Origin: a virus
Taxonomy: Duplodnaviria > Caudoviricetes
Length of the DNA stretch: 51,846 nucleotides
IMG/VR virus record: IMGVR_UViG_3300027205_000002
Coordinates: 1-51,846 of that record
Direction: 5' to 3' (one strand)
Below the pieces are notes generated by a model. The model was not told where the DNA came from, did not search any database, and saw only the letters and a list, made by a program, of their open reading frames with translations. Numbering within the stretch: position 1 is the first letter of the stretch; every line of letters starts with the position of its first letter. The translations under genes were made by a program, and so were the position numbers. Below, in pieces: positions 1 to 36,649 of this stretch.

Positions 1-10
1 CATAACCATT

Positions 11-124
11 ACACTACCACCTGACGCTTACAATGTCAAGCCAATCAAACAAATCCAACCGTAACATAAGTCACAAACAAATCCAACCAAAACACTTGAC
101 AACACCACACATACACGATAGACT
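11..124. promoter_or_regulatory. Divergent sigmaA promoter pair with central CRP-type box
   Basis: Minus TTGACA(39-34)-17-TAGTGT(16-11)-7-ATG(3); plus TTGACA(96-101)-17-TAGACT(119-124)-6-ATG(131); CGTAA-N6-TCACA at 60-75, 20 bp from each -35. Confidence 0.75.
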
Positions 125-130
125 AATCAT

Positions 131-340
131 ATGAACAAAACAACTACAGCACAATACACACCACAAGGGCTTATCGCCAAGGAAACCTACGACCTTATCG
201 TAGAAACAAACACCAACTTGTCAAAACTCGCATACAGCGAGGGACTGACCAAAAAGCAACTCAAAGCAATCAACAAGGCGTGGGTAGAGTTGAGTAAAAT
301 CAACGAAGCAGACGCAGACGACGACGACCCGTTCGCCTGA
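131..340 (+). CDS. hypothetical protein, leaderless
   Basis: ATG 6 nt after -10; acidic tail; followed by hairpin. Confidence 0.8.
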   Translation: MNKTTTAQYTPQGLIAKETYDLIVETNTNLSKLAYSEGLTKKQLKAINKAWVELSKINEADADDDDPFA

Positions 341-363
341 CCCACACATAGACCGCAAGGAAG

Positions 364-402
364 AGCCCCCACGACAACTTCGACCCGTCGTGGGGGTTTC
401 TT
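364..402 (+). terminator. intrinsic terminator-like hairpin
   Basis: AGCCCCCACGAC...GTCGTGGGGGTT then TCTT. Confidence 0.6.
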
Positions 403-534
403 GTACCCCGCCACCGACCAGCCCCGGCAGCGCGACACCCACACCCACACACAACCCCCCACACCCACAAACAAAAAACAACAACCCCTTGCCGGCTACA
501 AAAAGTAGACTCTACACTTATACCTCTCCGGCCA

Positions 535-599
535 TGTGACACACGACACATCCACAAAACCACACAAAGGTTGACAAATACATAAACACTCGCTATACT
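535..599 (+). promoter_or_regulatory. CRP-type box plus sigmaA promoter
   Basis: TGTGA-N6-ACACA 535-550, 20 bp gap, TTGACA(571)-17-TATACT(594). Confidence 0.7.
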
Positions 600-606
600 A
601 ATACAC

Positions 607-828
607 ATGACAAAGACACAAGCCGAGCGCACAGCGCAGGTAAATGACCACAAAGAGTTCATCGCCCTATGCGAGGCGTACGACACCCTTGAAGGTGAAG
701 CCAAGGACAAAGCAAAGGCTGACATCGCCGCCTATCTCGTCCGCTACCAAGAACTCTTGGAACTACCCAAGACTCTACACATGAGCGAGAACGAGTACGA
801 GGGTTGGCTAGAACGCCACCACCGCTAA
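607..828 (+). CDS. hypothetical protein, leaderless
   Basis: ATG 7 nt after TATACT. Confidence 0.8.
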   Translation: MTKTQAERTAQVNDHKEFIALCEAYDTLEGEAKDKAKADIAAYLVRYQELLELPKTLHMSENEYEGWLERHHR

Positions 829-835
829 GAGCGAA

Positions 836-853
836 CTGGGGGGAAACCCCCAG
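836..853 (+). terminator. hairpin after stop codon
   Basis: CTGGGGG-GAAA-CCCCCAG. Confidence 0.5.
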
Positions 854-1004
854 CCACCCGCCAACAAAAACGCCCGCTAATACAAAAGCAACGATTAGTG
901 GGTGCGTGCCGGAGTCCCGCTACCGACTTATCTCTTTGCTTTAATACGGGACTGTCTAGACGGCTAATCCCCCACCCCGTGTAGGGCAGGGGCATTGGCC
1001 TGAC

Positions 1005-1475
1005 TCACCAGCCTGCGAGTCTTGCCAGCAACCTCGCTAGGGGCGTATCAGCATCGTCTAGGTCATTGACTAGGGCGATGGACTCAGCGTCTAGGTCATT
1101 GACTGAGGAGACGAAATCAGCCTCAAAATCGTTGACGAGGGCAATGGACTCAGCCTCAAACTTGGCGAACGACTTGTCGCCATATCGGGCGACTGACTCG
1201 CTATGGAATACGACCGCAGGGAACTTGCTGTCAAACAGACCGTACATCGTACACAACATCCCTGAACTATAGAAGTAGTGAACGAGGCGGGCAGTTGCCG
1301 TGTAACGCTTGCGCTTGCCGTCGTGGGCGAACGATATTTCTACACGCTCACCATAGGGGGTTGTGTCTCCCCCGTGTCGTATATCCATCGTGGGGGAGTT
1401 CCACGCATAGGTGACCTTGCGGTCACGGTCGGTACGGGTGGCCTGCGAGAAACGCTCGGCGTGTGTGGTTGTCAT
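1005..1475 (-). CDS. hypothetical protein, leaderless (start revised to MTTTHAE)
   Basis: TTGCGT-17-TATACT-7-ATG(1475); internal near-duplication ESIALVND. Confidence 0.8.
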   Translation of the reverse strand: MTTTHAERFSQATRTDRDRKVTYAWNSPTMDIRHGGDTTPYGERVEISFAHDGKRKRYTATARLVHYFYSSGMLCTMYGLFDSKFPAVVFHSESVARYGDKSFAKFEAESIALVNDFEADFVSSVNDLDAESIALVNDLDDADTPLARLLARLAGW

Positions 1476-1482
1476 AGGTATT

Positions 1483-1576
1483 AGTATATCGTCTTGATAC
1501 AAGAAACGCAACCTATCCTACTATGAAATAAGTCACACAAATATGACTTGCTATTTTGGCCAATGGCCGTTATGCT
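1483..1576. promoter_or_regulatory. Divergent promoter pair with central CRP-type box
   Basis: TATGA-N6-TCACA 1522-1537, exactly 10 bp from minus -35 (1506-1511) and plus -35 TTGCTA (1548-1553). Confidence 0.8.
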
Positions 1577-1582
1577 AACACT

Positions 1583-1705
1583 ATGGAAAACGAAAACGAC
1601 CTCAACGACCCAGACCGCTACGACGCTCAGGGCTACCTAGACCCCGACAACGGGTGCTACGACCACGAAGGCAACTTCATCGGGCGACCCGTCAGCCATT
1701 GGTAA
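1583..1705 (+). CDS. 40-aa acidic peptide (not in ORF track)
   Basis: TATGCT-6-ATG; MENENDLNDPDRYDAQGYLDPDNGCYDHEGNFIGRPVSHW. Confidence 0.7.
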   Translation: MENENDLNDPDRYDAQGYLDPDNGCYDHEGNFIGRPVSHW

Positions 1706-1788
1706 CCCCTCAGGGGAATATAAACCAAACCCCCCATTCACTTAACATTCGCCCAACAGACAACACAGTCCCGGCGCCGGCATAAAAG

Positions 1789-1802
1789 CGAACAGGTGTT
1801 CG
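1789..1802. promoter_or_regulatory. LexA (SOS) box, Gram-positive/actinobacterial type
   Basis: CGAACAGGTGTTCG perfect CGAAC-N4-GTTCG. Confidence 0.75.
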
Positions 1803-1834
1803 GGGCTACTCGCCGTTACTTACCAGCGGTAAGT

Positions 1835-2014
1835 TCACTCCACCACCCGAAACACACGCACACCATCAACCCGACGCAGAAAAGTCCCACGCTCACGGAG
1901 CGACACACGCTGAAACTCACGCCCATCACGCACAAACACCAGCGTCACGGGCGCATCAACACGCACCTGATCACCCACACCAACACGCACACGCTCAAGC
2001 ATCTCCATATCCAT
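1835..2014 (-). CDS. hypothetical protein, leaderless
   Basis: TTGACA(2049-2044)-17-TAGAAT-6-ATG(2014). Confidence 0.7.
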   Translation of the reverse strand: MDMEMLERVRVGVGDQVRVDAPVTLVFVRDGREFQRVSLRERGTFLRRVDGVRVFRVVE

Positions 2015-2069
2015 ACACATATTCTACCCCAACACAAAACAAATGTCAACCTAATACACAAATAACCTA

Positions 2070-2085
2070 TATGAAACAAGTCACA
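2070..2085. promoter_or_regulatory. CRP-type box
   Basis: TATGA-AACAAG-TCACA, 20 bp from minus -35. Confidence 0.65.
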
Positions 2086-2180
2086 AACAATAACAAAAGT
2101 TCAAAAAAGTTTCAGAACGCAGACAAAGACGGTCTTTGGGGGTGGTTTTTAATCCTTTTCTGAGGATGGTTGGTTTTTCT

Positions 2181-2204
2181 TCAAGGAGTCACGGTGGTGG
2201 AAAG
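2181..2204 (+). repeat. 24-bp polar motif copy 1
   Basis: TCAA-N5-CACGGTGGTGGAAAG. Confidence 0.8.
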
Positions 2205-2277
2205 GGTTCTATGGTTTGTAGTGGGGTTATCTGTTTTAGAGATATAGGGTATCTTTTTTAGTGATATGGTGTTTATC

Positions 2278-2526
2278 TTACTTTGTAGGCGGTTGGGTAA
2301 TGTGTATCTCCCCGACTGCTAGCCAGCCCTGCCAGTGCGGTTCCCGCAGCCCCGTGAGGAGTATGTGGTCTGGTTTGTTGTTGTTTGGTGTGTGTATGAA
2401 GTGTGGTCCGTGTTCCCTAATGCGGTTACGGGTGCGTTGGGTTGCGGTGTGTGGGTTCGGTGCGATATGTACGGTTATTGGTTGTTCTGAGTCTTGTGTG
2501 ACTGCGGGACTCTCTGGCTGTTTCAT
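2278..2526 (-). CDS. hypothetical protein
   Basis: ORF with purine-rich RBS. Confidence 0.6.
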   Translation of the reverse strand: MKQPESPAVTQDSEQPITVHIAPNPHTATQRTRNRIREHGPHFIHTPNNNKPDHILLTGLREPHWQGWLAVGEIHITQPPTK

Positions 2527-2592
2527 GTCTCTCTCTCCCTAGGTAGATTCTGATACGGATTTCGTTTTCGTTGCTTTGTTACTGGTGCGTTT

Positions 2593-2967
2593 TTACTCTT
2601 GGGCGATGGGGGTGACGGTGATTGTTCCGCTTCCGTCGTGGTGCGAGAGTGCGCCTGTCAGGTGGTTTTCGTGGACTGTGAGTTCCAAGCGCCATTCTGT
2701 GCGGTCAGGCGTGATTGACTCCAGCAGTTTTTCGGGTGTTCGGGCGTGGAATGTTCCGCTAACTGGTCCGTCCCAGCGTGGGAATCCCTCAATACGAAAC
2801 TCTTGGTTGTTTTCGGTGAACAAGTGTTCCGTGATTTCCTGAAAATGCTCAACTTGGTCAGTCCAGCAGTCTCCCCAGCATTCGGGCGCTTCTTCCCAGT
2901 CGCCTGAGTCGTCGTTGAAGGTAACACAAATACAAGTGTTGGTGATTGTAGTGGTTGTTTTGTTCAT
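2593..2967 (-). CDS. hypothetical protein, leaderless
   Basis: TTGACA(3002-2997)-17-TATACT-6-ATG. Confidence 0.85.
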   Translation of the reverse strand: MNKTTTTITNTCICVTFNDDSGDWEEAPECWGDCWTDQVEHFQEITEHLFTENNQEFRIEGFPRWDGPVSGTFHARTPEKLLESITPDRTEWRLELTVHENHLTGALSHHDGSGTITVTPIAQE

Positions 2968-3047
2968 AGTGTTAGTATATCGCCTTTAGGAGTGTTTGTC
3001 AAGTGTTTGTCAAAAGAATAATAAGTATTTTTAGGGGGCGGGTTGGT

Positions 3048-3088
3048 TGTGTCACAAACTGCGGGGTGAATGTGTCATAAACTGCGGG
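3048..3088 (+). repeat. 18-bp direct repeat
   Basis: TGTGTCAYAAACTGCGGG at 3048 and 3071. Confidence 0.8.
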
Positions 3089-3141
3089 TTTATGGGTGGG
3101 TAAAAGGTGCGCATTGTTGATGCGGGCGGAGCCCCGTGCTA

Positions 3142-3513
3142 TCACTGGCCAACAAGTACCTTCGGGTGTCCGTTATGGATTGTGCCTGTGAGTGTCTTGG
3201 CTTGGTGTATTGGCTGGTCAGCGGACATAAAGGTGGTATGGGCGTAGGGGTTGTAGGCGACCGGGACTGTCCCAGTGGAGGGTGTGGCTGTCCATACTCC
3301 TCTGAGGTAGGCGTGTACATTCTTGCGTTGCTCTCGCAGGACTCGCTGTCTGCCTCTCTCTGAGACGATGAGGGTAACTGCGGTTAAGCCGATGTTTTGG
3401 GCGTGTGCTATCACTCGTCCGTAGGAGCCCCGAGCGCGCGACTTGACGGAAAAACACTTCTTGTGGAGGTTCCAATAAATGTCTACTGGGGTGCCATCGG
3501 GGATGTCAGTCAT
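3142..3513 (-). CDS. conserved phage hypothetical protein (YWNLHKKCFSV...RKNVHA motif)
   Basis: Motif recognised from phage early genes; GAAAGG RBS before ATG 3513. Confidence 0.8.
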   Translation of the reverse strand: MTDIPDGTPVDIYWNLHKKCFSVKSRARGSYGRVIAHAQNIGLTAVTLIVSERGRQRVLREQRKNVHAYLRGVWTATPSTGTVPVAYNPYAHTTFMSADQPIHQAKTLTGTIHNGHPKVLVGQ

Positions 3514-3529
3514 CTTCCGAGTGTACCTT

Positions 3530-3625
3530 TCAGCAGTCACACGCACCCAATGGGCGGATTTTGCCTCGGAGGTGTTCGCAGTCCTCGCAGGTTTCGTAGG
3601 GGATGGTGTCTTCTTCTGTTTCCAT
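3530..3625 (-). CDS. 31-aa Cys-rich peptide (not in track)
   Basis: GAAAGG RBS; METEEDTIPYETCEDCEHLRGKIRPLGACDC. Confidence 0.5.
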   Translation of the reverse strand: METEEDTIPYETCEDCEHLRGKIRPLGACDC

Positions 3626-3636
3626 GATCGTGCCTT

Positions 3637-3807
3637 TCAGTCTTCGTATTGGCGGTTGCTTCGGCGGACTCGGTAGAACTTGCCGTCCTTGCGGAGGGCG
3701 AGGTCAGGGTCAATGGCGAGTCCGAGGCGGATGTCTTCGTTCATGTCGTCTTCTTCTGAGTCAAACATTTCGTCAAACATTTCGGTGATGATGTCGGTGA
3801 TTTCCAT
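3637..3807 (-). CDS. acidic hypothetical protein, leaderless
   Basis: TTGCAA-17-TAGAGT-7-ATG(3807). Confidence 0.75.
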   Translation of the reverse strand: MEITDIITEMFDEMFDSEEDDMNEDIRLGLAIDPDLALRKDGKFYRVRRSNRQYED

Positions 3808-3814
3808 AAGTGTT

Positions 3815-4033
3815 ACTCTATCGGTCTTTGGGGGTGATTGCAACTTTATCGCTAGGTCAAATGTCACATAGGAAATACTTGACATAGGCTAATAGTTCTG
3901 CTAGACTCGCGCGGTTGGGTGGCCGGCCAGATTTCGGGCATTCTATCAGATTATTAGCATAAAAGCAACTTTATTGTGAGTGAAAAATGTCACATAGAAT
4001 AAGGTTGTGTCAGGGTAGTATTGGCGATAGAGT
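3815..4033. promoter_or_regulatory. Four-promoter module with two CRP-type boxes
   Basis: Minus 3815-3843, box 3853-3868, plus 3879-3907; minus 3940-3968, box AGTGA-N6-TCACA 3979-3994, plus 4005-4033. Confidence 0.75.
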
Positions 4034-4040
4034 ACTACTT

Positions 4041-4334
4041 ATGAAAACACAACACAAATACCAATATGTCCCTACCAGCGAAGCAATGACGGTTGATTGC
4101 GAGGGCTCTACTGCCATCGCTGAGTTCACTTTCAGCCCCAATGTTGCCTCTGAGCAGGTGTGGGTACAAGTTCAGTACCGTTCAGGCGGAACTTACTGCT
4201 ACTTCGTTCCCTTCGGCATTTTCTACAGCAACCTTCACCTCGCTAGCGTCGGCAAGTTCGTCGCCACCGTCGTCAAGGCTCACGCCACCTTCACCTCAGA
4301 CCGTGACCGTGCGGGCAAGGCGGTCGCCTGCTGA
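4041..4334 (+). CDS. KTSC-domain-like protein
   Basis: STAI...VQYRSGGTYCYFVP...ASVGKF fits KTSC pattern; leaderless. Confidence 0.7.
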   Translation: MKTQHKYQYVPTSEAMTVDCEGSTAIAEFTFSPNVASEQVWVQVQYRSGGTYCYFVPFGIFYSNLHLASVGKFVATVVKAHATFTSDRDRAGKAVAC

Positions 4335-4501
4335 CCCTCAAGTAGAGGTTGAGGGTTTGCTACGCTATCACCTGAGAGTTTGGTGGTAGTGTCATAGGGT
4401 CGGTGTGGTTTGCAGGTCGGAGCCAGCGCCCCCACATCACAAGCAAGGAGTCCTTCGCCCAAGTGGTGAGGGACTCTTTGTCGTTCCGCCCTCGGTAGCC
4501 C

Positions 4502-4530
4502 CGAACATTTGTTCGCCGAACATCCGTTCG
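4502..4530. promoter_or_regulatory. Tandem LexA boxes
   Basis: CGAACATTTGTTCG (4502) and CGAACATCCGTTCG (4517), 1 bp apart. Confidence 0.8.
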
Positions 4531-4582
4531 CCCGTTTCGTAAACTGCGGGGCTGGTAGGTGGAGGTGTGTCGGTATACAAAA

Positions 4583-4622
4583 GAACCCCACGACAGCCCA
4601 AGGGACCAGCCGTGGGGGTTCT
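4583..4622. terminator. hairpin between convergent genes
   Basis: GAACCCCACG...CGTGGGGGTTC. Confidence 0.45.
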
Positions 4623-4642
4623 CCCTTACGGAGGAGGTTGCT

Positions 4643-4867
4643 TTAGCCTCTACCAATGACGACGGCTTCATCAGCCATACGAACCATCTCTTTGGTCATA
4701 TTGAGACCGCCAAGAATAGCCAAGCCAATGGCTCGCTTTAGTTCGTTGGGCGTTGCCAGTGGCAAGTAGTTGTCAATGGCTTCCCAAGCCTTCAAACCCG
4801 CAAGGATTTCCTCGTGGGTCTTGTAGATGTATGTCTTGTTTTGCTCTGTGAGTTCTAGTGTTTTCAT
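4643..4867 (-). CDS. hypothetical protein, leaderless
   Basis: TTGCGG-17-TAGAAT-7-ATG(4867). Confidence 0.8.
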   Translation of the reverse strand: MKTLELTEQNKTYIYKTHEEILAGLKAWEAIDNYLPLATPNELKRAIGLAILGGLNMTKEMVRMADEAVVIGRG

Positions 4868-4874
4868 AAGAGTC

Positions 4875-4976
4875 ATTCTAATGGTTGTTACTGTAAACCG
4901 CAACCTCTATTTGCTTTATTTGTGTGATAAAAGTCACACAGAATAACTTGCTTTTAGACTAACTATCCTGTAGAGT
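4875..4976. promoter_or_regulatory. Divergent promoters with perfect CRP box
   Basis: TGTGA-TAAAAG-TCACA 4923-4938; gaps 19 and 9 bp to the -35 elements. Confidence 0.8.
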
Positions 4977-4983
4977 ACTTGAC

Positions 4984-5268
4984 ATGACAAAAAACACCGC
5001 TGACTGCTTTGCAGAAGCAAATGTTTGGAACACTCAACCATACGAGAAGGCAGTCGCTCACGCCCGTGATCTTCTTGAAGCCCTCGCCCAGTGGGGCACC
5101 GATGGCGACGATCTCTGGTCAGGTATCGCCGACGATCTCTACCCTGCCCTTATGGCGCTCGTCTCTGAAGGCGCAAGTTTCGGTCTCACCGACTGCGCCT
5201 GCGGACCTCGCTACTCAGACCTCACCAACCCACAACACGGAAAAGTTGCTTTCGGGCAACCCAACTGA
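4984..5268 (+). CDS. hypothetical protein, leaderless
   Basis: TTGCTT-17-TAGAGT-7-ATG. Confidence 0.75.
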   Translation: MTKNTADCFAEANVWNTQPYEKAVAHARDLLEALAQWGTDGDDLWSGIADDLYPALMALVSEGASFGLTDCACGPRYSDLTNPQHGKVAFGQPN

Positions 5269-5281
5269 TAGGATACTCCCC

Positions 5282-5584
5282 ATGACAACGATGCTCACCA
5301 CCACAGAAACCGAAGCCCTCGTCGCAGACGCTCACGCTGTTTGCGCCCTACTCCCTGCTCACCTCGGACCGAACAAGACCCAATCACAGATACTCACCGA
5401 ATGCGAACTCATCGCCAAAGTTTGGAAAACTCTCCACTCGGTCTTTGATGTCCATACTCACGCCCTGCCACTTGATCAAGAAGAAGTGATGCGACTCCAA
5501 AACACGCTCAAGTCAATCAACGCCATTGACTACGGGCGCAAGGGGTCTTTCTCGCCAAGTTGGACATGGTACGAACTCGTCTGA
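5282..5584 (+). CDS. hypothetical protein, leaderless (start revised)
   Basis: TTGCTT(5246)-17-TAGGAT-7-ATG(5282). Confidence 0.75.
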   Translation: MTTMLTTTETEALVADAHAVCALLPAHLGPNKTQSQILTECELIAKVWKTLHSVFDVHTHALPLDQEEVMRLQNTLKSINAIDYGRKGSFSPSWTWYELV

Positions 5585-5772
5585 GCAGGGCGGCCCGACC
5601 GTCAGAAGTTACTCGGAGGCTACGGCCTGCCACTCGGAGTTAGAAATGACACCGACTCAAAGTTAGAAAAAAGACTCGGCGACAGTAGCGTCAGTATGTC
5701 AAATTATGTTAAACACAAACATACTGTTGTAGCCTACAAGTATTAGCATAACCCTCTAGTAGAGGTTGAGAG

Positions 5773-5976
5773 TTAGTCGAGACCCTCAGACCAGCGATGC
5801 ATCTCACCAATGGTCTTGCCTTGATTGAACTGAGCCGTGCCAGCATTCCGCACCTGCAGGTCTAGCCCCGATGATAGTGAAGCGAGCATTCCCTTGATCT
5901 CGTTCAGCGTTTGACGAAGCAAAACAATCTCGCGCTCTAATCTATCCAATCGTTGAGATAGCAATTCGTCGTCCAT
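5773..5976 (-). CDS. coiled-coil hypothetical protein
   Basis: Heptad Leu pattern; TAATGT 6 nt upstream of ATG. Confidence 0.7.
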   Translation of the reverse strand: MDDELLSQRLDRLEREIVLLRQTLNEIKGMLASLSSGLDLQVRNAGTAQFNQGKTIGEMHRWSEGLD

Positions 5977-6014
5977 ACCCAGACATTAGCGTAAGCCGGG
6001 GCTGCGTAGGGAGA

Positions 6015-6221
6015 CTACCCTCGGATTGTTTCCACCGTGTCGCACAACTTTGAGATGTCAATGCCGTAGTGGTACAGCATCATATTTTTGGCGAGGTCTG
6101 TGGCGACTGTTTCTAGTTTGTCGTTGTCAGCATCAGCGATGTCTGGTTCTAGTAAGTCAAGTTCTACGCCGACATTCATCGTGAAGTGGTCGGCTATGAA
6201 AGTAACTGTGTACGGTGTCAT
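6015..6221 (-). CDS. hypothetical protein
   Basis: ATGA coupling to upstream gene. Confidence 0.7.
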   Translation of the reverse strand: MTPYTVTFIADHFTMNVGVELDLLEPDIADADNDKLETVATDLAKNMMLYHYGIDISKLCDTVETIRG

Positions 6222-6421
6222 CGCCATACGCCTGTTTTGATACGGACAAGGCTGGTTGCCTCGGCTCGGGAGCCCCGTACGCCAAGTAGTTCGCCTTGTG
6301 TGTCGTAAGCGACCCAAGTGTCATAACGATATGACCACCATCGCACTCGTGCTGGTATCAGATAACCGACTTTGGGTGTCTTATATTTTTTGCCTGCGTA
6401 GATGGTTGCGAAAGTCGCCAT
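6218..6421 (-). CDS. hypothetical protein
   Basis: TAATG coupling. Confidence 0.7.
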   Translation of the reverse strand: MATFATIYAGKKYKTPKVGYLIPARVRWWSYRYDTWVAYDTQGELLGVRGSRAEATSLVRIKTGVWR

Positions 6422-6762
6422 TATTCGTCGTCCTCGTCGTCGTCCTGTTCGTCGTCGTAATCCCAAGAGTCACCCTGACTAATCAGACTAATGTAACCAG
6501 CGTTCGGGTCGGCGTGATTAGTGGCGACTGCGCTAACAAACCTCAGACCGCAAGAGTTGGTGTACCAACAGTCAAGTGCGCTAAGCATTTCGTCGCTCGT
6601 CCCCCGTACGGAGTATTCGTAGTTTTCCTCAAACCACTGTGCCTGCTCGTCGTCTAGAGCCACATAGATTTTATGGCAACCGTCCCAAGCGACAAGGAGA
6701 GCATCGCCCATAGCGTCTGCGACCTTATCGGCAACCAATGGGTGCAAGTCTCGGAGTTCCAT
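6421..6762 (-). CDS. hypothetical protein (WDGCHKIY motif)
   Basis: TAATG coupling; acidic tail. Confidence 0.8.
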   Translation of the reverse strand: MELRDLHPLVADKVADAMGDALLVAWDGCHKIYVALDDEQAQWFEENYEYSVRGTSDEMLSALDCWYTNSCGLRFVSAVATNHADPNAGYISLISQGDSWDYDDEQDDDEDDE

Positions 6763-7031
6763 TAGAGCGTTACCGCCACTCCGTCAGCGGACTTCTTGAC
6801 CACCAATGTGGCTAGTGGCTTGACAAACAGGCTAAGAAACTTGCCTGCCGAGTCGTAGTTGGCGAGTGTGGCGAGCAGGTTGCCCTCGCTTACTGTGTAG
6901 ATGTATGTCTGCTCTGTGTTGCTCTTGAACCGAGCAATGACGATACTGTCGTCAATGATGTTCAGGCTCTCCAACGCTACGCTGGTTGAGCAATCTACTG
7001 TGACCGTATTTGTGGTGGTGGTGATTTTCAT
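6762..7031 (-). CDS. KTSC-domain-like protein, paralog of 4041-4334
   Basis: TVDC.S..., ARFKS...YIYTV...SAGKFL; TATAAT-6-ATG. Confidence 0.65.
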   Translation of the reverse strand: MKITTTTNTVTVDCSTSVALESLNIIDDSIVIARFKSNTEQTYIYTVSEGNLLATLANYDSAGKFLSLFVKPLATLVVKKSADGVAVTL

Positions 7032-7037
7032 ATCTCC

Positions 7038-7267
7038 ATTATACACCCGTTAGGCTAGGAGTCAATAGGTTTTAGTGATTTTCTTTGTGGCAGATGTCAC
7101 ATAGGATAAGGTTGCTTTTATCATAACAATCGGTTAGACTAGCGTTTTTTCTGCGCCGGCGTCAGTGATCGCGCATTATAACCATTACTAACCTATAAGT
7201 CAAGTTATTCTAATATGATAAATGTCACACGGGAATACTTGCGTTACGGCGAGATAGACGATAGGAT
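7038..7267. promoter_or_regulatory. Four-promoter module with two CRP-type boxes
   Basis: Minus 7038-7065, box 7086-7101, plus 7112-7140; minus 7175-7203, box 7214-7229, plus 7239-7267. Confidence 0.75.
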
Positions 7268-7274
7268 ATCTCTT

Positions 7275-7508
7275 ATGAAAACAAACACCACAATCAGTGA
7301 ACTTGCCAGCCTTATCCTTGATGGCTATTGGACTCTCTGCTCAGGCGGGGAAGCCATTGAGGCAGCCATTAGCGATTACCTTAGTCGCACGCCCGAAAGC
7401 GGTATGCTCCCTTGGGGCATTGACGAGGACACGCCCGTCAGCCCATTAGAGTTTCTCTCAGCCATTGAGGAACTCATTGGGTGGCTCAGAGAGAACGGCT
7501 CACTGTAA
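7275..7508 (+). CDS. hypothetical protein, paralog of 13752-14081
   Basis: ELA..ILDGY.TLCS...AI shared; leaderless. Confidence 0.8.
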   Translation: MKTNTTISELASLILDGYWTLCSGGEAIEAAISDYLSRTPESGMLPWGIDEDTPVSPLEFLSAIEELIGWLRENGSL

Positions 7509-8026: not shown

Positions 8027-8045
8027 GGGCTGCTAGTGCGGGCAG

Positions 8046-29529: not shown

Positions 29530-29545
29530 GACTATAATGACAAGT

Positions 29546-29887
29546 ATGACCACCAACATCTTTGACCCTTGTATTTACTGCGGTGACTTCACTGCGTTTG
29601 GCTCTGTCCGTGAGGACGGAACACTCATCGGCAAGTTCGTGAACCGTATTCCTGCTGACACTACGGATGAGGAAACAGGCGAATACAAGGACGGGTATGC
29701 GTGTGCTGAGTGCGCTGGGTTTGAGTGCGACGAATGCGATACGGCTATCTATCTTGACTGCGAAACCCGTGTGGAGTTTCAGGACGAGAGTGGCAAGTAC
29801 CACTACGGCAACTATCACACCGAGTGCTACAACGAAACGAAACACGGTAAAGCCGAATACGGCGAGAACATTGAGGAGACAGTATGA
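29546..29887 (+). CDS. Cys-rich hypothetical protein (GKFVNRIPA), leaderless
   Basis: TTGACA-17-TATAAT-7-ATG(29546). Confidence 0.85.
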   Translation: MTTNIFDPCIYCGDFTAFGSVREDGTLIGKFVNRIPADTTDEETGEYKDGYACAECAGFECDECDTAIYLDCETRVEFQDESGKYHYGNYHTECYNETKHGKAEYGENIEETV

Positions 29888-30237
29888 CCACCATTACGAA
29901 ACGAGAGATTGACCTCTCTATACGGAACGCCGATAACTCTTGGTATTGGCAACAAATCCGTGACTACAGCAATAGAGAAACCCATCGGTTGCGAGCGAAC
30001 ATTCGTCGTAACGCCTACGACCATCAGTCGTACGCCAACATTGAGAGATGGTCTAACGAACGAGGCTGGGTCATCATTTCGTGCCACCCCATCACGGACT
30101 ACCCGTGTGCCAAAGTTTGGTCTGGCAGAGAACAACTTACCGACAACGACCACGAGTGGTTCATTCAGAGTGCTGAGTGCTTATTTGCGATAGGAGTGAA
30201 GTTCATTGAGAGCGATTACAGTTACACAGACATATGA
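29884..30237 (+). CDS. hypothetical protein
   Basis: GAGGAG RBS. Confidence 0.8.
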   Translation: MTTITKREIDLSIRNADNSWYWQQIRDYSNRETHRLRANIRRNAYDHQSYANIERWSNERGWVIISCHPITDYPCAKVWSGREQLTDNDHEWFIQSAECLFAIGVKFIESDYSYTDI

Positions 30238-30490
30238 ACTAATCGTTACGGCTGAAGTCCAAGTGCCTGACGATAGTACCTATGAAGATATGGTCAATGC
30301 GTTTACCGACTTCCCTATTCGTGTTGATGTAAACCCCGTTTGGGACGATACCGAGAATGGTATGACTATCGGTGGACTCTGCGTGGACGGCGTTGTTTCT
30401 TTGACGGGCGACGACACGCTCGTTTTTTATGAAATGAAAGACGACGAATGGACTCGCATAGAAGAAAGCGAGGAAAGTGACGATGAGTGA
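30206..30490 (+). CDS. acidic hypothetical protein
   Basis: Operonic. Confidence 0.7.
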   Translation: MRAITVTQTYELIVTAEVQVPDDSTYEDMVNAFTDFPIRVDVNPVWDDTENGMTIGGLCVDGVVSLTGDDTLVFYEMKDDEWTRIEESEESDDE

Positions 30491-30719
30491 CTTCCACGAC
30501 TTCACTGGCATTACCCGTATGGACTTTGACTGTGCGACAGACTCTCGCAAGGAAGTCATAGTTCAGTTATCTACAGTCAAGCACGACCCACAACAGAGTG
30601 TATGTATTGTTGTTTTCACTGAAGAGGGAGTCATCTTTGACTTTTATACTGATGGAGAACTCGTCCGTACGAACGGGCGCACCTATCAAGAATGGTTTGA
30701 TGCGTCGCTACAAGCGTAG
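30477..30719 (+). CDS. hypothetical protein (TEEGVIFDFY)
   Basis: GAGGA RBS. Confidence 0.75.
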   Translation: MTMSDFHDFTGITRMDFDCATDSRKEVIVQLSTVKHDPQQSVCIVVFTEEGVIFDFYTDGELVRTNGRTYQEWFDASLQA

Positions 30720-30761
30720 GGACACCCATAGCCTGAATATCACTACAACAAGAAAGGGATT

Positions 30762-31061
30762 ATGAACGATCCAATAAAGAAAGAGAACGGCTCTATTGAC
30801 ACCGACGCTTATAAGGGTATGTCGGGGCTAGTAGATGTGAATGGAATGAAGGTGTCCGTCACTGTCACTGATACCCGTGTGTGTTACGGGAGATTTGATT
30901 TGTGCGTAGTACCGAAGGAAGGTAACGGTCAGCGTTGGATTGACTACAAGAATGTAGAACTCTCCGATATGCCGAAGCCAACTGCCGAACCTGAACTCTC
31001 TACGATACGAGAAATGATTTTGTCTCTTACTGAGAAAGCAAAAGCGAAGCAAGAGGCATAA
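30762..31061 (+). CDS. hypothetical protein
   Basis: GAAAGGGA RBS. Confidence 0.8.
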   Translation: MNDPIKKENGSIDTDAYKGMSGLVDVNGMKVSVTVTDTRVCYGRFDLCVVPKEGNGQRWIDYKNVELSDMPKPTAEPELSTIREMILSLTEKAKAKQEA

Positions 31062-31064
31062 AGG

Positions 31065-31112
31065 TTTGTGGGGTTCTCCGTACTCCTATTTATTGCGGAG
31101 AACTTCCACAAA
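31065..31112 (+). terminator. long hairpin after operon
   Basis: TTTGTGGGGTTCTCCG...CGGAGAACTTCCACAAA. Confidence 0.55.
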
Positions 31113-31180
31113 ACACTTGACATTGGTTTGATTTACCGATATACTTATCTCTATAACCACCACTACCGAAGGGGATTACT

Positions 31181-31918
31181 ATGCCGAACTGGTGCTACAA
31201 CAGAATGAATGTTACGGGAGACCGTGAGTCGCTAGTCAAACTCACTGAAGCGATTACCCGTCAGTACGACCCGTCGCTCGCTGAGACAACAATGGGTGTT
31301 GAGCAGGTGAACTACGACCTATCTGTCTTATTTCCTATTCCTGATGAACTCCGAATAACGGCTATGTTCTTTAGTACCGAGACTGACGACCCTGAATATC
31401 AAGAACTTCTCAAGAAGTACGAAGCGAACAAGGAGAAGTACGGTTACACCACTTGGTATGACTGGGCTATTGAGAACTGGGGTACGAAGTGGTCGCCTCG
31501 TATTGAGGAGTGGGAAATCATTGACCACTCTGACGGGAGTGGCGGTATCTATGCGTACTACGAGACTGCGTGGTCACCTGCTGACGGACTTATCCGTGAA
31601 GTGAGCAAGCAGTTCCCGACACTCTTGTTCGTAGTTTCTTCTGACGAGGAAGGTCGCTCGTTCTCTTGTGTTGGGGCGTTCAGTAATGGCGAGATGGTTG
31701 CTGAGGCTGGTTGCGAACTGTCTGCTAACAAAGTGCCTGAGCAGTTCCGTGAGGCTTATGCGAGGATAGATGAGGAAATAGAGTCTGGTACAAGTGACGG
31801 GAACTACGACGCTTGGGACGAGATGAGCGAACTTGACAGTGACATTCTCGGCTGGTTAGAAACTGAAGTAGATAACCAACTGCGTGACAAGGGATTACTG
31901 CCGAAGTTGAGCGTATGA
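31181..31918 (+). CDS. YubB/DUF1281-like ferredoxin-fold protein
   Basis: MPNWC.N...WYDW..ENWGTKW...TAWSP signature. Confidence 0.85.
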   Translation: MPNWCYNRMNVTGDRESLVKLTEAITRQYDPSLAETTMGVEQVNYDLSVLFPIPDELRITAMFFSTETDDPEYQELLKKYEANKEKYGYTTWYDWAIENWGTKWSPRIEEWEIIDHSDGSGGIYAYYETAWSPADGLIREVSKQFPTLLFVVSSDEEGRSFSCVGAFSNGEMVAEAGCELSANKVPEQFREAYARIDEEIESGTSDGNYDAWDEMSELDSDILGWLETEVDNQLRDKGLLPKLSV

Positions 31919-31941
31919 CCCGTAGGTCACCCGTGTAGTTT

Positions 31942-32205
31942 TCAGACTTCTTCTGAGTGTTCGCAGTTTTCGTCGTGAGTGTGTTCTTCGGTGGCGACTT
32001 CGGTGTCGTTCTTCTTGGACTTGCGCTTGGGCTTATCCTCGGCGGCAACTTCTTCCGTAGCGACTTCTTCCGTGACGACTTCTGCGACAGGGGCGACTTC
32101 TTCTACGACGACTTCAGCAACAACCTCGGCAACGGGGCTGACTGTGACACGAGTGGCGAGAGCCTCGCGATGAGCAATAAGTTCTTCTTTTGATAGTTTG
32201 CGCAT
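31942..32205 (-). CDS. E/V/A-rich low-complexity protein
   Basis: CAGGAG RBS; EEVA repeats, KPKRKSKK. Confidence 0.7.
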   Translation of the reverse strand: MRKLSKEELIAHREALATRVTVSPVAEVVAEVVVEEVAPVAEVVTEEVATEEVAAEDKPKRKSKKNDTEVATEEHTHDENCEHSEEV

Positions 32206-32305
32206 TGGGTTTCTCCTGATAGGGGTACAGAACAGTGTATCAAATACTAGGGTTATTATAAAATAAGACTTGACAGAAAGAAAGTTACCTTGTATGCTTG
32301 ACAGT

Positions 32306-32767
32306 ATGACACCACAAGAAGCCGATACAGAATACAAGAACACTCTCCGTAGCCTCGCTGAGGAACACGGCGGTTACAGTTTTATCCCTAGTGAGTCGTG
32401 GCGTGAAGCGTCAGAGATCACTCGTGCGTGGGCAGTCGTTGCTAAGTACGAGGGTACGGTTAGCGTGGAGTTACTCGGTCGCTATATGGTTCCGCTATCC
32501 ATTATTACCCGTATTATGCCCTCGGTGACACTGGATAACACCCGTAAGGTCGCTCGTGCTGACCAATACAAAGCATTTGAGCAGTGGGCGAGAGATCACG
32601 ACAGAGAACAGTTCACGACAGATCAGATCGTAGAAGCGTCAGGGTTTGGATATCAGACAACGCTGAAGTTCATTGACGGACACCCGTCTTTTTATAAGAT
32701 CAAGAAAGGCCTATACGAGTGCCGTGATTGTCACGCTGATCGTGAGCAGGCTAAGAAATCTAAATAA
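32306..32767 (+). CDS. hypothetical protein with possible winged HTH, leaderless
   Basis: TTGACA-17-TATGCT-7-ATG(32306). Confidence 0.8.
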   Translation: MTPQEADTEYKNTLRSLAEEHGGYSFIPSESWREASEITRAWAVVAKYEGTVSVELLGRYMVPLSIITRIMPSVTLDNTRKVARADQYKAFEQWARDHDREQFTTDQIVEASGFGYQTTLKFIDGHPSFYKIKKGLYECRDCHADREQAKKSK

Positions 32768-32853
32768 ATCTTTCGGAAACACTTGACAGGCGATCTAATC
32801 ACTGGTAGAGTTATACCCGTAAGCAAAACCACCACTACACAGAAAGAAACAAA

Positions 32854-33570
32854 ATGACCACCACCACACTCCCTGCCTGCTGGCAGAAGTTCCACAACGC
32901 CCTACACGCTGGTATTGACCGCATTATCTTATTCGGACCCGCTGGTACGGGTAAGACTTTCGCTGGTTTATCTTTCGGTGATACGGCAGGCGGTTCTTTC
33001 CGTCTTGCGTGTACCGAAGATATGACCAACGCTGATGTATCGGGTTCTTTTATGCCTGACACTAAGGGCGGTTTCTCTTGGGTTAGCGGTTCTGCGCTGA
33101 AGGCGTGGAACGGCGACAACACTAAGGGCGGTCGTCTTGTCGTAGACGAGATTGACAAGGCTGGCGGAGATGTATTCGCTACCCTACTGAACTTCCTTGA
33201 CTCTCCTGAGTCTGCTAGTTGGGAACACCCTGAGACGGGTCGTATCTACACTCCCCGTAGCGGTTTCTCTGCCGTAATGACAACAAACATTGAGAATATG
33301 GCAGAACTACCCGTAGCACTTGCTGACCGTTTCCCCGTTCGTATTCGTATCAGTGAGCCACACCCACAGGCACTTCTGAAACTGTCTGACGACTTGCGTG
33401 GTATGGCAGTGCGTATGTCTGACGCTGGTAAGCAACGGATTAGTTTGCGAGCGTTCTATGCGTTTGACAAACTGCGCTCCACTCTCTCCATAGAAGAAAG
33501 TGCCGAGATCGTATTCGGTGAGCGAGCAACTTCTATTCTAGAAGCGATCAAAGTAGACGCTCTGAAATGA
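32854..33570 (+). CDS. MoxR/CbbQ/CobS-like AAA+ ATPase
   Basis: Walker A GPAGTGKT, Walker B LVVDEID, LPVALADRF Arg finger. Confidence 0.9.
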   Translation: MTTTTLPACWQKFHNALHAGIDRIILFGPAGTGKTFAGLSFGDTAGGSFRLACTEDMTNADVSGSFMPDTKGGFSWVSGSALKAWNGDNTKGGRLVVDEIDKAGGDVFATLLNFLDSPESASWEHPETGRIYTPRSGFSAVMTTNIENMAELPVALADRFPVRIRISEPHPQALLKLSDDLRGMAVRMSDAGKQRISLRAFYAFDKLRSTLSIEESAEIVFGERATSILEAIKVDALK

Positions 33571-35066
33571 GTAAGACACTTCACCGCCCCCTGCCTGAAA
33601 TAATCACTAGGCACGATATCTCCGTAGGCGAGTGGTCAGTATCGGACTGCGCTCCTACTCGTGGCTTACCCCATACTGTCATTAGTCAGAAGCGTCTTGT
33701 CGCCCCACAGGGCAGTGACCCACTATCACAGGCGATACGAGCGCACGAGATGGTTCATATCAAAGTGTCACCACAAGACTACGCACCGTGGGTAAAGCGT
33801 GGACACGCTACCTACGAGTCACTGATCGCCTGCGAGGAAGCACGAGTGAACTATCTCGCTACGAAAGCAGGGTTTGATATGAAAGCCCTCGCTGACGGTT
33901 CTGAGAAAGAAGCGGGCGAGCGTTATGTCGCTAACGAGGACTGGGAAGGAGCAGTGCGTACTGCTATCGCAACTGTCGGTAGTAATGCCCATAGGCAGTT
34001 CATTACGGGCGTACGCCGACATAACAAAGTGTGGGCTGATGTTCTTGCCGATATTGGTAAGCGAGCCACCCGTGAACTAAAAAAGCACGATAGACGAAGT
34101 GGTAAGCGAAGTCTCGCTAGTACGACTGACGACGATAACGACTTCACTCCTTACGGTTTTATCTATACCGAAATGCTAGCGAACTGGGTTGATCGCCTAT
34201 GCGGTAATAATCCCGACGACAAAAGTAACGACGGTGACGACGACGGTGATAGCGACGGTGACGGTGATGGTGGTGAAAGCAAAGACACCAACAAGGGTAA
34301 AGACTCCGACAACACCCGTGACACTACCCGTGACGATAAAAAGAAAGTGCTTGACGAGTATAAGCGTATGGAAATCGCTGACACTCCTATCCCTGCTTGG
34401 TGTGATCTTGTCATAGAGACTTGCCCTATGCCCGTAGTTCTGAACGGTTCTATGGGTAGAAAGCGTGTTGCGAGTAATACGGGCAGAAGTCCACGCCGAC
34501 TTCACCGCTACTTGACTGACCCCCAACGGCGAGTGTTTGACCACACTATTCGTGGCAAGGGCGGTATCGTACTTATTGACTGCTCGGGTTCTACTCAGAT
34601 CACCAAAGACGAAGTGCGAGAGATACTAGTCAATAGCCCTAGTGCTACTGTTGTTGTCTATACGGTGCTTAGTTTCACCCGTGACGATAACGGCGAACTA
34701 CCTACTAATGCTTGGGTTCTCGCTAAGAACGGTCGTATGGTTGAGGATATTCCGTTTGAGAGTGGTGCTGCTAATGCGGTTGATCTCCCTGCCGTTCGTT
34801 GGGCGGTTGATAATCGCAAGCGTCGTGAGCCGATTATTTGGGTTACTGATGGTGGCGTGTCAGGCGTGTCAAGCGAGGGTAGGGGAGAGTCTTTTCATAA
34901 GTCGCTGAACCTAGAGTGTCTAGAGTTTGTCAAGCGACACGGGATTATCCTTGCGAGTGATGTCACCAACGCTATTGAGAAACTCACCAAACTACGGACA
35001 GGCACAAGACCACACTCAGACTACGGTCAAGGGTTCTCTCCCTATGTCTCACAAGTATTCGGATAA
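33567..35066 (+). CDS. vWA-domain protein with N-terminal HExxH motif (CobT-like partner)
   Basis: HEMVH...EEAR, acidic D/G linker, MIDAS DCSGS and VTDG. Confidence 0.85.
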   Translation: MSKTLHRPLPEIITRHDISVGEWSVSDCAPTRGLPHTVISQKRLVAPQGSDPLSQAIRAHEMVHIKVSPQDYAPWVKRGHATYESLIACEEARVNYLATKAGFDMKALADGSEKEAGERYVANEDWEGAVRTAIATVGSNAHRQFITGVRRHNKVWADVLADIGKRATRELKKHDRRSGKRSLASTTDDDNDFTPYGFIYTEMLANWVDRLCGNNPDDKSNDGDDDGDSDGDGDGGESKDTNKGKDSDNTRDTTRDDKKKVLDEYKRMEIADTPIPAWCDLVIETCPMPVVLNGSMGRKRVASNTGRSPRRLHRYLTDPQRRVFDHTIRGKGGIVLIDCSGSTQITKDEVREILVNSPSATVVVYTVLSFTRDDNGELPTNAWVLAKNGRMVEDIPFESGAANAVDLPAVRWAVDNRKRREPIIWVTDGGVSGVSSEGRGESFHKSLNLECLEFVKRHGIILASDVTNAIEKLTKLRTGTRPHSDYGQGFSPYVSQVFG

Positions 35067-35307
35067 CCGTTCGGGTACGAGCGTAGGCGTTATGCTACGC
35101 TATGTGAGAAGTGTAGTTGAGTCACTATGGTCGTGGTGGTCAGTAGGTGACTCCTACACTTTACTAAGTAGCACTGCCTTACTCTCACGAGTAGGTGGTG
35201 CTATTTGGTATACGGGGACAGGTATGAGAGAGACACGAGGTACTGAACTACTGTCACGCTCTCACCTACTGTCATACTCCGACACACACACTCCCTTACT
35301 CCCTAGA

Positions 35308-35743
35308 GTTACCCGTAGGACTACCCGTGTCACTTGGCGACAGGACACACTAAGAGACAGCACGCTAGGGGGTAGTAGGGTAACGAGGACAGGTCAGGGT
35401 AGGGGAGAGACTTTTTTCGTTTTGACGGCTTACTAGGGTAGGGGTACGCAATGCTTGACGGTGGTGGAAAGGGCGTTGCTTTTCTCTCTTGCGGTCAAGG
35501 GTTGGGGTTCATAAAGTTTTACTAGGTCAAGGGTCAAGGTCAAGGGGAGTCACTAGGACACTAGGGGACACGGGGGTTCACTAGAGGACTCAGGTGAAGT
35601 CAGGCGGAGACTAGGAGACTCAGGGGGAGACAGGTGGACACAAGGGGAGTCAAGGGTCAAGAGGGATAACGGTCAAGGGTCAAGAGGGATAACGGTCAAG
35701 GGTCAAGGTGATAGGGCATAGGGTTACCCGTAGGACTACCCGT
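35308..35743 (+). repeat. G-rich repeat arm
   Basis: GTTACCCGTAGGACTACCCGT at 35308 and 35723; 23-bp GTCAAGGGTCAAGAGGGATAACG x2 at 35649-35694; many GGTCAAGG units. Confidence 0.8.
35448..35471 (+). repeat. 24-bp polar motif copy 6
   Basis: GCAA-N5-GACGGTGGTGGAAAG. Confidence 0.85.
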
Positions 35744-35790
35744 AGCACTTTTTTTTCGGGGTCAGGGAGTCAAGGTCAGGGGGGTCAGGC

Positions 35791-35921
35791 TGTGGATAAG
35801 TCTGTGGATAAAGGGATAGGGCTGTGGATAAGTGGGGGGGTAGGGCTGTGGATAAGTAAGGGGGGGGCAAGGGGTCAATAGGGGGTAGTTATACACAGGC
35901 TGGGGATAGGGCTGTGGATAA
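35791..35921. promoter_or_regulatory. DnaA box cluster 3 (6 boxes)
   Basis: TGTGGATAA at 35791, 35803, 35823, 35847, 35913; TTATACACA at 35889. Confidence 0.85.
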
Positions 35922-35984
35922 GTAGGGGTTAGGGGTATCCCTAGAATTACCCGTAGGGCTGGCGGTTTCCTCACCCTTGACAGT

Positions 35985-36243
35985 CCCGCCTCGCCCTGTC
36001 CTCTTGCCTTGCCTTGCCTTGCCCTCGCCTCGCCTCGCCTTGCCTTGCCCTGCCTCTCTCGCCTTGCCCTCTCGCCTTGCCCTCGCCTTGCCCTCGCCTT
36101 GCCTTACCCTCTCTTGCCAGCCCCGCCCTCTTGCCCTCGCCTTGCCTTGCCCTGCCTCTCTCGCCTTGCCCTCTCGCCCTGCCTCTCCCCCTCTCCTTGC
36201 CTTGCCCCTCTCGCCCCTCTCGCTTCGCCTTGCCCTACCTTGC
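35985..36243 (+). repeat. C/T-rich repeat arm (CCTTG/CCTCG units)
   Basis: Almost no A; 44-bp internal duplication at ~36033 and ~36135. Confidence 0.85.
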
Positions 36244-36285
36244 TAGTCCCGCTTACGACACGGGCAAAATACGGGCAAAATATGC

Positions 36286-36525
36286 CGAACATTTGTTCGT
36301 AACGAGTGTCATAACGACTTCCATAGCCCCCACCGAACAGGCGTTCGCCGAACATTTGTTCGCACCGACAGTCCCGCCAAGACGACGAACACTTGTTCGC
36401 ACTCCAACACGGGATACGACAGTCCCGCAAATCAGCCCCCATTACAAGCCCAATAACACCCGTAGGCTTACCCGTAGATGTTTGTACCGTACAACCAAAC
36501 ACCTGTTCGTATGACAAATGTCACA
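36286..36525. promoter_or_regulatory. LexA box cluster (5) plus CRP-type box
   Basis: CGAAC-N4-GTTCG at 36286, 36334, 36349, 36386; CAAAC-N4-GTTCG at 36496; TATGA-N6-TCACA at 36510. Confidence 0.85.
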
Positions 36526-36649
36526 TCAGTACGACATACGGGGCTGCCCCCCAACTTTTCCGTGCGGGTATTTCCCCGTGGGCGGGCGTGCGCTATATTT
36601 TTAGTGTTCTGATGTTTGGGTTAGATTTATCCAGCCTAGTGAGTGGTGG

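Follow-up and report, generated by a model that had tools for sequence, protein, structure and literature searches.

The stretch of DNA analysed here (the window: all 51,846 nt of IMG/VR record IMGVR_UViG_3300027205_000002) is a fragment of the genome of an uncultured phage from lake (freshwater) samples, the record being about 33% complete by CheckV, and the system in question is a set of intergenic boxes in its left part that resemble binding sites of the host regulators Crp, LexA and DnaA. The AAA gene of the window is found at 62-100% identity in 69 loci, and complete members of this phage family measure 151-159 kb. The main landmarks of the window are as follows, with the strand where one is assigned.

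1..35066: early region, its small genes arranged as promoter-gene cassettes
9479-9552 (-): tRNA-Arg(TCT), within the early region
32854..35066 (+): AAA_5 ATPase and vWA-like partner, the family anchor
35067..36649: 1.6-kb non-coding stretch between convergent genes, with strand-biased low-complexity repeats, TACCCGTAG words, a DnaA cluster and an SOS cluster
36862..37251 (-): gene for an HA domain with a sigma70_r4-type helix-turn-helix (HTH), termed HA-HTH
38946..39826 (+): replication-initiator-like gene (phrog_16167, E 2e-15) and partner, 3 kb from the DnaA cluster
41237..41551 (-): WhiB-family gene, a marker of an actinobacterial host

The small genes of the early region appear to be driven by 43 leaderless sigA-type promoters of the pattern TTGnnn-16/17-TAnnnT-5..8-ATG, none of which lies right of 32.3 kb, and most of their products carry no Pfam or PHROG name (108 proteins scanned). 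Palindromes of the CRP type (TGTGA-N6-TCACA) occur 12 times with at most one mismatch, two of them perfect; shuffled sequences are expected to hold 2.69, and none of 100 shuffles reached 12. Two further CRP-type boxes, with two mismatches, lie at 60 and 8336. SOS boxes (CGAAC-N4-GTTCG) are present in eight exact copies (0.04 expected), or ten when one mismatch is allowed, and the 11 DnaA boxes comprise ten copies of TTATCCACA (0.53 expected) and one of TTATACACA. These numbers agree with the initial annotation of this DNA, which had listed about 14 CRP-type, 10 SOS and 11 DnaA boxes as mainly intergenic and absent right of 36.6 kb: all 12 CRP-type, 8 exact SOS and 11 DnaA boxes are intergenic, and beyond 36.6 kb each kind is found zero times. 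An order-3 Markov model trained on the window's own 9,047 intergenic bases gave means of 0.47, 0.01 and 0.45 for CRP-type, SOS and DnaA boxes, and 0 of 200 simulations matched the observed 12, 8 and 11. The CRP-type boxes, taken earlier as part of a set extending over 1-36.6 kb, are present but not evenly spread, 11 of the 12 lying within 535-13571 and one at 36510. The PafBC promoter has the form TGTC(A/G)G-N10-TA-N3-T and parS is GTTTCACGTGAAAC; both of these consensus words occur 0 times in the window.

The contig G011 is 100% identical to the window over positions 1-35861 and extends it leftward by 14.8 kb of core genes, in which there are no CRP-type boxes, no SOS boxes and one DnaA box. 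Its first 126 nt (G011:C1:1-126) are the reverse complement of window 1-126, and the next gene fits the leftward promoter at window 39; this reversed end is either an assembly artefact or an inverted repeat.

The host family of the window phage is probably Ilumatobacteraceae, given the shared AAA-vWA operon and the WhiB gene. A 58% homologue of the AAA-vWA pair is found in acIV/Ilumatobacteraceae chromosomes, where it stands beside leuS in bins in 6 of 9 genome matches, the other 3 being phage-like contigs in bins. The host family encodes DnaA in 57 of 61 genomes, LexA in 39 of 41 and a Crp-type HTH (HTH_Crp_2) in 41 of 41. The proposal that the phage words match host-type sites is upheld by the host sequences: 29 of 30 lexA promoters of the family carry CGAAC-N4-GTT(C/T)G, often in tandem, dnaA/oriC regions contain TTATCCACA and TTGTCCACA, and the DnaA words of the window fit the TT(A/G)TNCACA pattern of host oriC.

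Among 21 phage records, a phage sigma factor (sigma70_r2) scored above cut-off in none (6 of the 21 being near complete), as did DnaA domain IV (PF08299), most of these records being partial. A Crp-type HTH exceeded the cut-off in one, in a winged-helix gene; the orthologue of that gene in the window scores 14 bits. Searches against cultured phages gave distant matches only, with the AAA protein at 31% to two Microbacterium phages and a 1203-aa protein giving 7 partial matches; phage DSL-LC01 has a similar gene set (AAA/WhiB/HslV). The tRNA-Arg, the sole match in an Rfam scan of the window, is identical in sequence in the relative G014.

Placement of the CRP-type boxes

The initial annotation had placed the CRP-type boxes at promoters, which is borne out, and the placement moreover has a fixed phase (distances are from the box centre).

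60..75: CRP-type box, two mismatches, 28.5 bp upstream of each of two divergent TTGACA boxes
535..550: CRP-type box, 28.5 bp above the -35 at 571
1522..1537: CRP-type box, 18.5 bp upstream of a divergent pair of weak -35 boxes
2070..2085: CRP-type box, 28.5 bp above the -35 at 2049 (-)
3979..3994: CRP-type box, 18.5 bp upstream of TTGTGT at 4005 (+)
4923..4938: perfect CRP-type box flanked by divergent promoters, at 17.5 and 27.5 bp
7086..7101: CRP-type box, 28.5 bp above the -35 at 7065 (-)
7214..7229: CRP-type box, 17.5 bp upstream of TTGCGT at 7239 (+)
8989..9004: CRP-type box, shared by two divergent promoters at 18.5 bp
10078..10093: CRP-type box, shared by two divergent promoters at 18.5 bp
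11120..11135: perfect CRP-type box, 18.5 bp upstream of TTGCTT at 11109 (-); an SOS half-site abuts
13556..13571: CRP-type box, 28.5 bp above the -35 at 13535 (-), the last one tied to a promoter

When the 12 boxes with at most one mismatch are taken together with the box at 60, 12 of these 13 are centred, measured to the first T of the -35 box, either 17.5-18.5 or 27.5-28.5 bp upstream, two positions that lie 10 bp apart (binomial p 1.6e-9 against 8/53 positions). Five boxes each serve two divergent promoters. In all, a CRP-type box is present at 17 of the 23 promoters that lie within the first 13.6 kb and at none of the 20 beyond. Host Crp would be positioned 18 or 28 bp above the -35 of these 17 promoters. 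The -35 box departs from consensus in 8 of 10 promoters with a near box, compared with 6 of 26 promoters without a box (Fisher p 0.005), which is what dependence on an activator would predict; because the near-box promoters carry weak -35 boxes, Crp is likely to activate the 17 promoters.

The boxes themselves resemble actinobacterial Crp sites (PMC3520106) in their palindrome, 6-bp spacer, G before the downstream half and the Crp helix SRERVNK of the host. That helix, which has the R-E-x-x-x-K/R form expected of Crp, is present in 4 of 20 host loci examined, one having another helix and 15 falling outside the pattern used. G occupies position 11 in all 12 unforced boxes. All 13 of 13 boxes contain the GNCAC half, and 8 of 13 carry the full GTG-N6-GNCAC, which is the footprinted Crp consensus of Streptomyces coelicolor (PMC3520106).

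The same geometry recurs outside the family. A scan of IMG/VR for box-gap-TTGACA, covering 27 of 64 parts, returned 124 loci in unrelated phages, each sharing 0-1 proteins with the window, and in 49 of 126 distinct sites the gap between box and -35 is 10 (centre 18.5), 42 of them with a -10 box; a second peak lies at gap 21 (15 sites). This repetition in unrelated phages points to a shared host factor. Host chromosomes hold CRP boxes near TTGAC above control as well, though without this spacing, with 26 sites against 1 in 401 Acidimicrobiia genomes and 40 against 0 in 401 Actinomycetota genomes, by a pattern slightly looser than that of the phage scan. Judged from our own IMG/VR scans, the combination of CRP, SOS and DnaA boxes is widespread in unrelated phages; the three occur together in L298 (4400-4460 region), L281, L289, L312 and L317, and in L298 a CRP box near 2600 also has a parS-like palindrome next to it. 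Direct contact of an SOS box with a CRP box, seen at window 36496-36525, is found in 13 of 34 distinct sites elsewhere.

DnaA and SOS boxes in the window

The DnaA boxes and the intergenic SOS boxes of the window are placed as follows.

1789..1802: exact SOS box, convergent gene junction, beside an AGCCCCG word
4502..4530: two tandem exact SOS boxes with a 15-bp period, convergent junction
8013..8026: exact SOS box, convergent junction
10299..10319 (-): two tandem DnaA boxes with a 3-nt spacer, convergent junction
21753..21820: three DnaA boxes and one SOS box (one mismatch) above the promoter at 21724 (-), kept in the relative G009
35791..35921: six DnaA boxes in a cluster
36286..36525: four exact SOS boxes followed by a one-mismatch SOS box, which directly abuts a CRP-type box that no promoter follows

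As the initial annotation had it, these boxes lie mostly away from promoters, 17 of the 22 sites being at promoter-free convergent gene ends. The 11 SOS sites divide into nine at convergent ends, one above the 21.7-kb promoter and one within a gene, and none of the 11 overlaps a -35 to -10 region. The 11 DnaA boxes divide into three above a promoter, two at a convergent junction and six in the 1.6-kb non-coding stretch. A promoter-upstream DnaA arrangement is kept at one promoter of the window genome, the 21.7-kb promoter, where the nearest box ends 28 nt above TTGACA and where DnaA may bind. At the convergent gene ends, the most likely role of bound host proteins would be that of roadblocks or insulators separating strong transcription units that face each other.

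An SOS-like word within a gene, GAACAAGTGTTC at window 2817-2829, is kept in the G012 and G013 orthologues and may be a coding coincidence. AGCCCCG, which often touches SOS boxes, has 37 copies between window 420 and 37129 (3.25 expected) and none right of 37.2 kb; its counterpart in relatives consists of inverted pairs GGAGCCCCG...CGGGGCTCC.

The non-coding stretch contains direct repeats of TACCCGTAG (12-nt pairs) at window 35299-36477 and a purine-to-pyrimidine strand switch at about 35.96 kb, and relatives carry microsatellites at its place. Conservation of the array is divided: the order of DnaA boxes followed by SOS boxes at 35.8-36.5 kb is preserved in L008, L011, L012 and L014, with 13-16 DnaA boxes and several natural variants among these, and the DnaA cluster is missing from L004, the nearest non-identical relative (AAA 95%), and from the complete genomes G001-G005.

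A very unlikely explanation for the 35.1-36.6 kb array is that it is unrelated to transcription and forms a DnaA-assisted origin or a T5-like injection-stop or genome-end element. The dense array of DnaA boxes in mixed orientation, the repeat-rich 1.6 kb at the edge of the early region, the replication-initiator-like gene nearby and the several contigs that end in or near the stretch are all consistent with such an element. In T5-like phages the injection-stop region, 1.66 kb long and with 8 DnaA boxes (Davison, bioRxiv 10.1101/866236), likewise is repeat-rich, non-coding and at the edge of the first-expressed genes; a signal of this type would be expected in a terminal repeat close to the end injected first. 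The 8 boxes were, however, conserved in all 25 phages compared in that in silico study, unlike the cluster here, which is absent from the nearest relative; the window cluster is paired with SOS boxes, the family's DnaA boxes are mostly at promoters, and GC skew has no extreme at the place of the cluster in five complete genomes. An origin or injection element would also leave the CRP boxes and the promoter-linked DnaA boxes unexplained.

According to the initial annotation, the promoter-free clusters look like decoys that could titrate LexA and DnaA before any phage protein is made, derepressing SOS and blocking host initiation, with the CRP boxes used for sensing; we regard this as unlikely. 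The promoter-free positions and the preserved array order fit a decoy, and so does the resemblance to E. coli datA (PMC5835720), a cluster of consensus and one-misfit DnaA boxes outside an origin that titrates DnaA directly to some degree. The same source, however, describes datA as needing an IHF site between its boxes and acting mainly by IHF-dependent ATP hydrolysis. Stoichiometry is a further difficulty, since 11 DnaA boxes per incoming genome equal about 5% of the approximately 200 DnaA molecules per E. coli origin (PMC5835720), although host numbers may differ, and 10 SOS boxes per incoming genome face several at the host lexA promoter alone. The timing before any phage protein is the weakest part of the decoy model. 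Amplification of phage DNA raises the box number by copy number, and a sink effect of the SOS and DnaA boxes would be possible only after such replication.

Promoter types and regulator words among relatives

The relatives G012 and G014 (AAA 76%) share genes with the window often at 80-95% DNA identity, and they place their boxes differently. They hold 33 and 35 exact DnaA boxes, respectively, 1-2 CRP boxes and 1-3 TTGAC-type leaderless promoters. Each has 30 promoters with a (C/G)AAC(T/C)...CCGATA core, which is found in only 4 contigs, and DnaA boxes stand 8-9 nt above this core in 20 of 33 cases in G012 and 25 of 35 in G014 (45 of 68 together), with 7 and 5 further boxes as tandem partners. 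Compared with the SigD consensus (-35 GTAAC(A/G), -10 GAT; PMC6338062), the core agrees in AAC and GAT and differs in GT, a resemblance without identity, so we refer to it as of the extracytoplasmic function (ECF) type only in likeness. In a further group (G007, G008, G015, G019 and G020), 13 of 30 DnaA boxes sit 17 nt above a TTG-17-TAnnnT promoter. The distance from the end of the DnaA box to the ATG is 41-42, about 52 or 64 nt in three groups, in steps of about one helical turn; the DnaA box is by its position a promoter-upstream element of the family, at which DnaA would bind. Box-rich relatives thus carry their boxes at promoter cores and the nearest relative has no DnaA cluster, which tells against a decoy acting ahead of phage gene expression.

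Orthologous genes change promoter type wholesale between relatives. The gene at 8769-8942, for example, has a CRP box and TTGACA in the window, a DnaA box and ECF-like core in G012, and the AAATCCTTA type in G013. Promoter cores are homogenised within lineages: AAC..CCGATA in G012/G014, AAATCCTTA..GACAG in G013, TACAAGGCATAAT in G015/G020, CTACCGATA in G007/G008/G019 and GTCTG(A/T)ACC..TGGTAC in G001-G004. G012 and G014 also carry TTGTTA-17-TTnAnT promoters that depart from the usual TA at -10, and for G010 a de novo 9-mer search gave no clear promoter word. One tentative reading, which we hold to be possible but the less probable outcome, treats early promoters as a swappable dialect, in which orthologous gene sets are rewired between sigA with Crp, ECF-type with DnaA, sigA with DnaA and an XRE word; DnaA would be the master activator in some lineages, and the promoter-free DnaA/SOS arrays here, as protein-free sinks or roadblocks, would interfere with replication of the host and its SOS control while phage DNA builds up.

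In a sister clade the SOS box takes a different position. A single SOS box lies just above the -10 of the HA-HTH promoter in 33 of 61 loci with an HA-HTH gene, a layout that is, by its sequence, that of a textbook LexA operator; the HA-HTH promoter of the window has no such operator. These loci form one clade (14 of the 36 rows of an AAA tree built from 34 of 70 phage AAA sequences and 2 bacterial ones; support 90/99). Here the SOS box would act as a repressor operator, comparable to the LexA-controlled phages GIL01, CTXphi, SPC32H and 186 (as cited in PMC9437464, which also cites the Spo0A sites of phi29) in that a phage HTH gene has a single SOS box at its promoter. The window differs from these phages in that its SOS boxes lie away from the HA-HTH promoter, and integrase and resolvase were found in 0 of 5 complete relatives.

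The sister clade has almost no DnaA boxes near the AAA anchor and instead carries 45-119 copies of TAG(A/G)TAAG in the early region, a word one base from a DnaA box that also sits just above promoters. Its early regions (G001-G005) encode an XRE-family protein, for example at L078:4690-4908 (-) with the helix DRKTVNRIEN. Of the 51 loci that extend 3 kb or more upstream, XRE and the word occur together without a DnaA box in 24, 17 have DnaA boxes only, 8 have none of the three and 2 have XRE only, so that the word is present in 24 of 26 XRE loci and in 0 of 25 XRE-less loci. Because the loci are kin, this is one clade split rather than a series of independent events. A host with the variant DnaA box TTAYCTA was ruled out, this variant occurring 0 times in 29 host oriC regions, and a paired TAG(A/G)TAAG word was found in 1 of 151 Acidimicrobiia genomes, L494 (G074:C56:2039-2059), before a TetR-like gene.

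XRE and TAG(A/G)TAAG are a candidate stoperator-like system of the sister clade. Cluster A mycobacteriophages also have many copies of a short, lineage-specific word across the early region, read by a phage repressor with a proposed block to elongation (PMC9283540, PMC6550527), and this model suits the sister clade better than the window, whose words match host sites. To extend it to the whole family, so that phage-encoded proteins read the words, which would resemble host sites through mimicry or through drift among related words (TGGATAAG, TAGATAAG, TAGGTAAG), seems to us quite unlikely. The high copy number of the word together with XRE, and its absence from host oriC, speak for such readers; the XRE gene was not found in the window (itself from a record 33% complete), in G011 or in DnaA-bearing loci, the SOS and DnaA words are exactly equal to host sites, and the CRP geometry is repeated in unrelated phages. 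HA-HTH was ruled out as the reader of the lineage words, its recognition helix being invariant while the words differ between lineages.

Two other words were recorded. The polar word (G)ACGGTGG(T/C)GGAAAG is, like the HA-HTH recognition helix, constant between lineages; it lies at window 2191, 11401, 14235, 24572, 35458, 37345, 38268, 39066 and 39689, 9 of 9 on the + strand (0.10 expected), and runs 166 to 0 across the 69 AAA-oriented loci. GACAC, a WhiA-like candidate word, has a raw count of 157.

Proposed host-state control of early transcription

The fixed box positions in the window and its relatives suggest that the boxes are predicted sites of host Crp, DnaA and LexA that gate phage early transcription by the state of the host, a reading to which we give slightly better than an even chance. 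The phage would then likely tune its own genes to the cell state rather than use the boxes mainly as decoys. From observed counts, positions, phasing and conservation pattern, and from the host's own proteins and sites, we infer the host identity, the binding and the sign of control.

Several observations weigh against this gating by host proteins. E. coli CRP has its optima at -41.5 and -61.5 (class II and class I). The CRP-type boxes are centred about -53 and -63, off these optima and unlike class I/II promoters, and gap 10 is rare in host chromosome sites (1 of 26 in Acidimicrobiia, 2 of 40 in Actinomycetota); activation by Crp is for these two reasons a prediction. Five small host genomes contain GTGA-N5-GTCAC less often than its control (36 against 109), and the 18 DnaA boxes of G013 match neither promoter pattern. 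The host assignment comes from one shared operon and WhiB rather than from a spacer or prophage, the roadblock role of the promoter-free boxes, although most likely, is putative, and at about 33% completeness of the record a phage-encoded binder may lie outside the window. All 12 CRP-type boxes have one polarity and a common A-rich spacer, as copying of one cassette would give, and every lineage owns a private high-copy word, so the cassettes become homogenised with or without a host protein that reads the words.

The last two points would also be expected if the boxes were largely passengers, in cassettes copied and homogenised by recombination, with the promoter-free clusters as relics of promoter modules. 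The sequence at 36496-36525 indeed resembles the SOS-CRP-promoter module of other phages minus the promoter. We nevertheless consider passenger status highly improbable, as the exact host consensus is retained while flanks vary, the spacing is kept in unrelated phages and lineages differ by helical-turn steps; a bound host protein would, in any case, act whether or not the box was initially selected.

Gating by host regulators has its closest known counterpart in the CtrA-controlled phages of Alphaproteobacteria, for which "lytic deferment" was described with electrophoretic mobility shift and reporter data for one regulator (Mascolo et al. 2022, PMC9437464). In both cases the sites of a host global regulator are clustered in the intergenic DNA of one small-gene region, and timing of phage genes by host state is proposed. 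The window differs in having three regulators, known from sequence, and in close relatives that swap regulator and promoter type; the CtrA study reports no positional bias for DnaA sites, unlike the DnaA boxes of the window's family, which favour promoters. Co-option of a single host regulator by phages is already known for LexA, Spo0A and CtrA (PMC9437464). In the literature searched, which for the most part lay outside subscription journals and preprint supplements, we found no account of the CRP/SOS/DnaA triad, of three regulators at once, or of DnaA at a constant upstream position in 20-25 phage promoters. The apparently new elements are DnaA at fixed promoter positions, the exchange of whole promoter sets among close relatives and the mutual exclusion with the XRE word.

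The family offers a natural experiment, in which the same genes at 70-90% identity stand behind different promoter types and one clade has a phage repressor word, and the phased sites permit an easy, direct reporter test in a cultivable actinobacterium. If the predicted binding is true, the boxes would be usable as a host-prediction signal, and abundant lake phages of slow-growing actinobacteria would gate their takeover of the cell on carbon, replication and damage signals.

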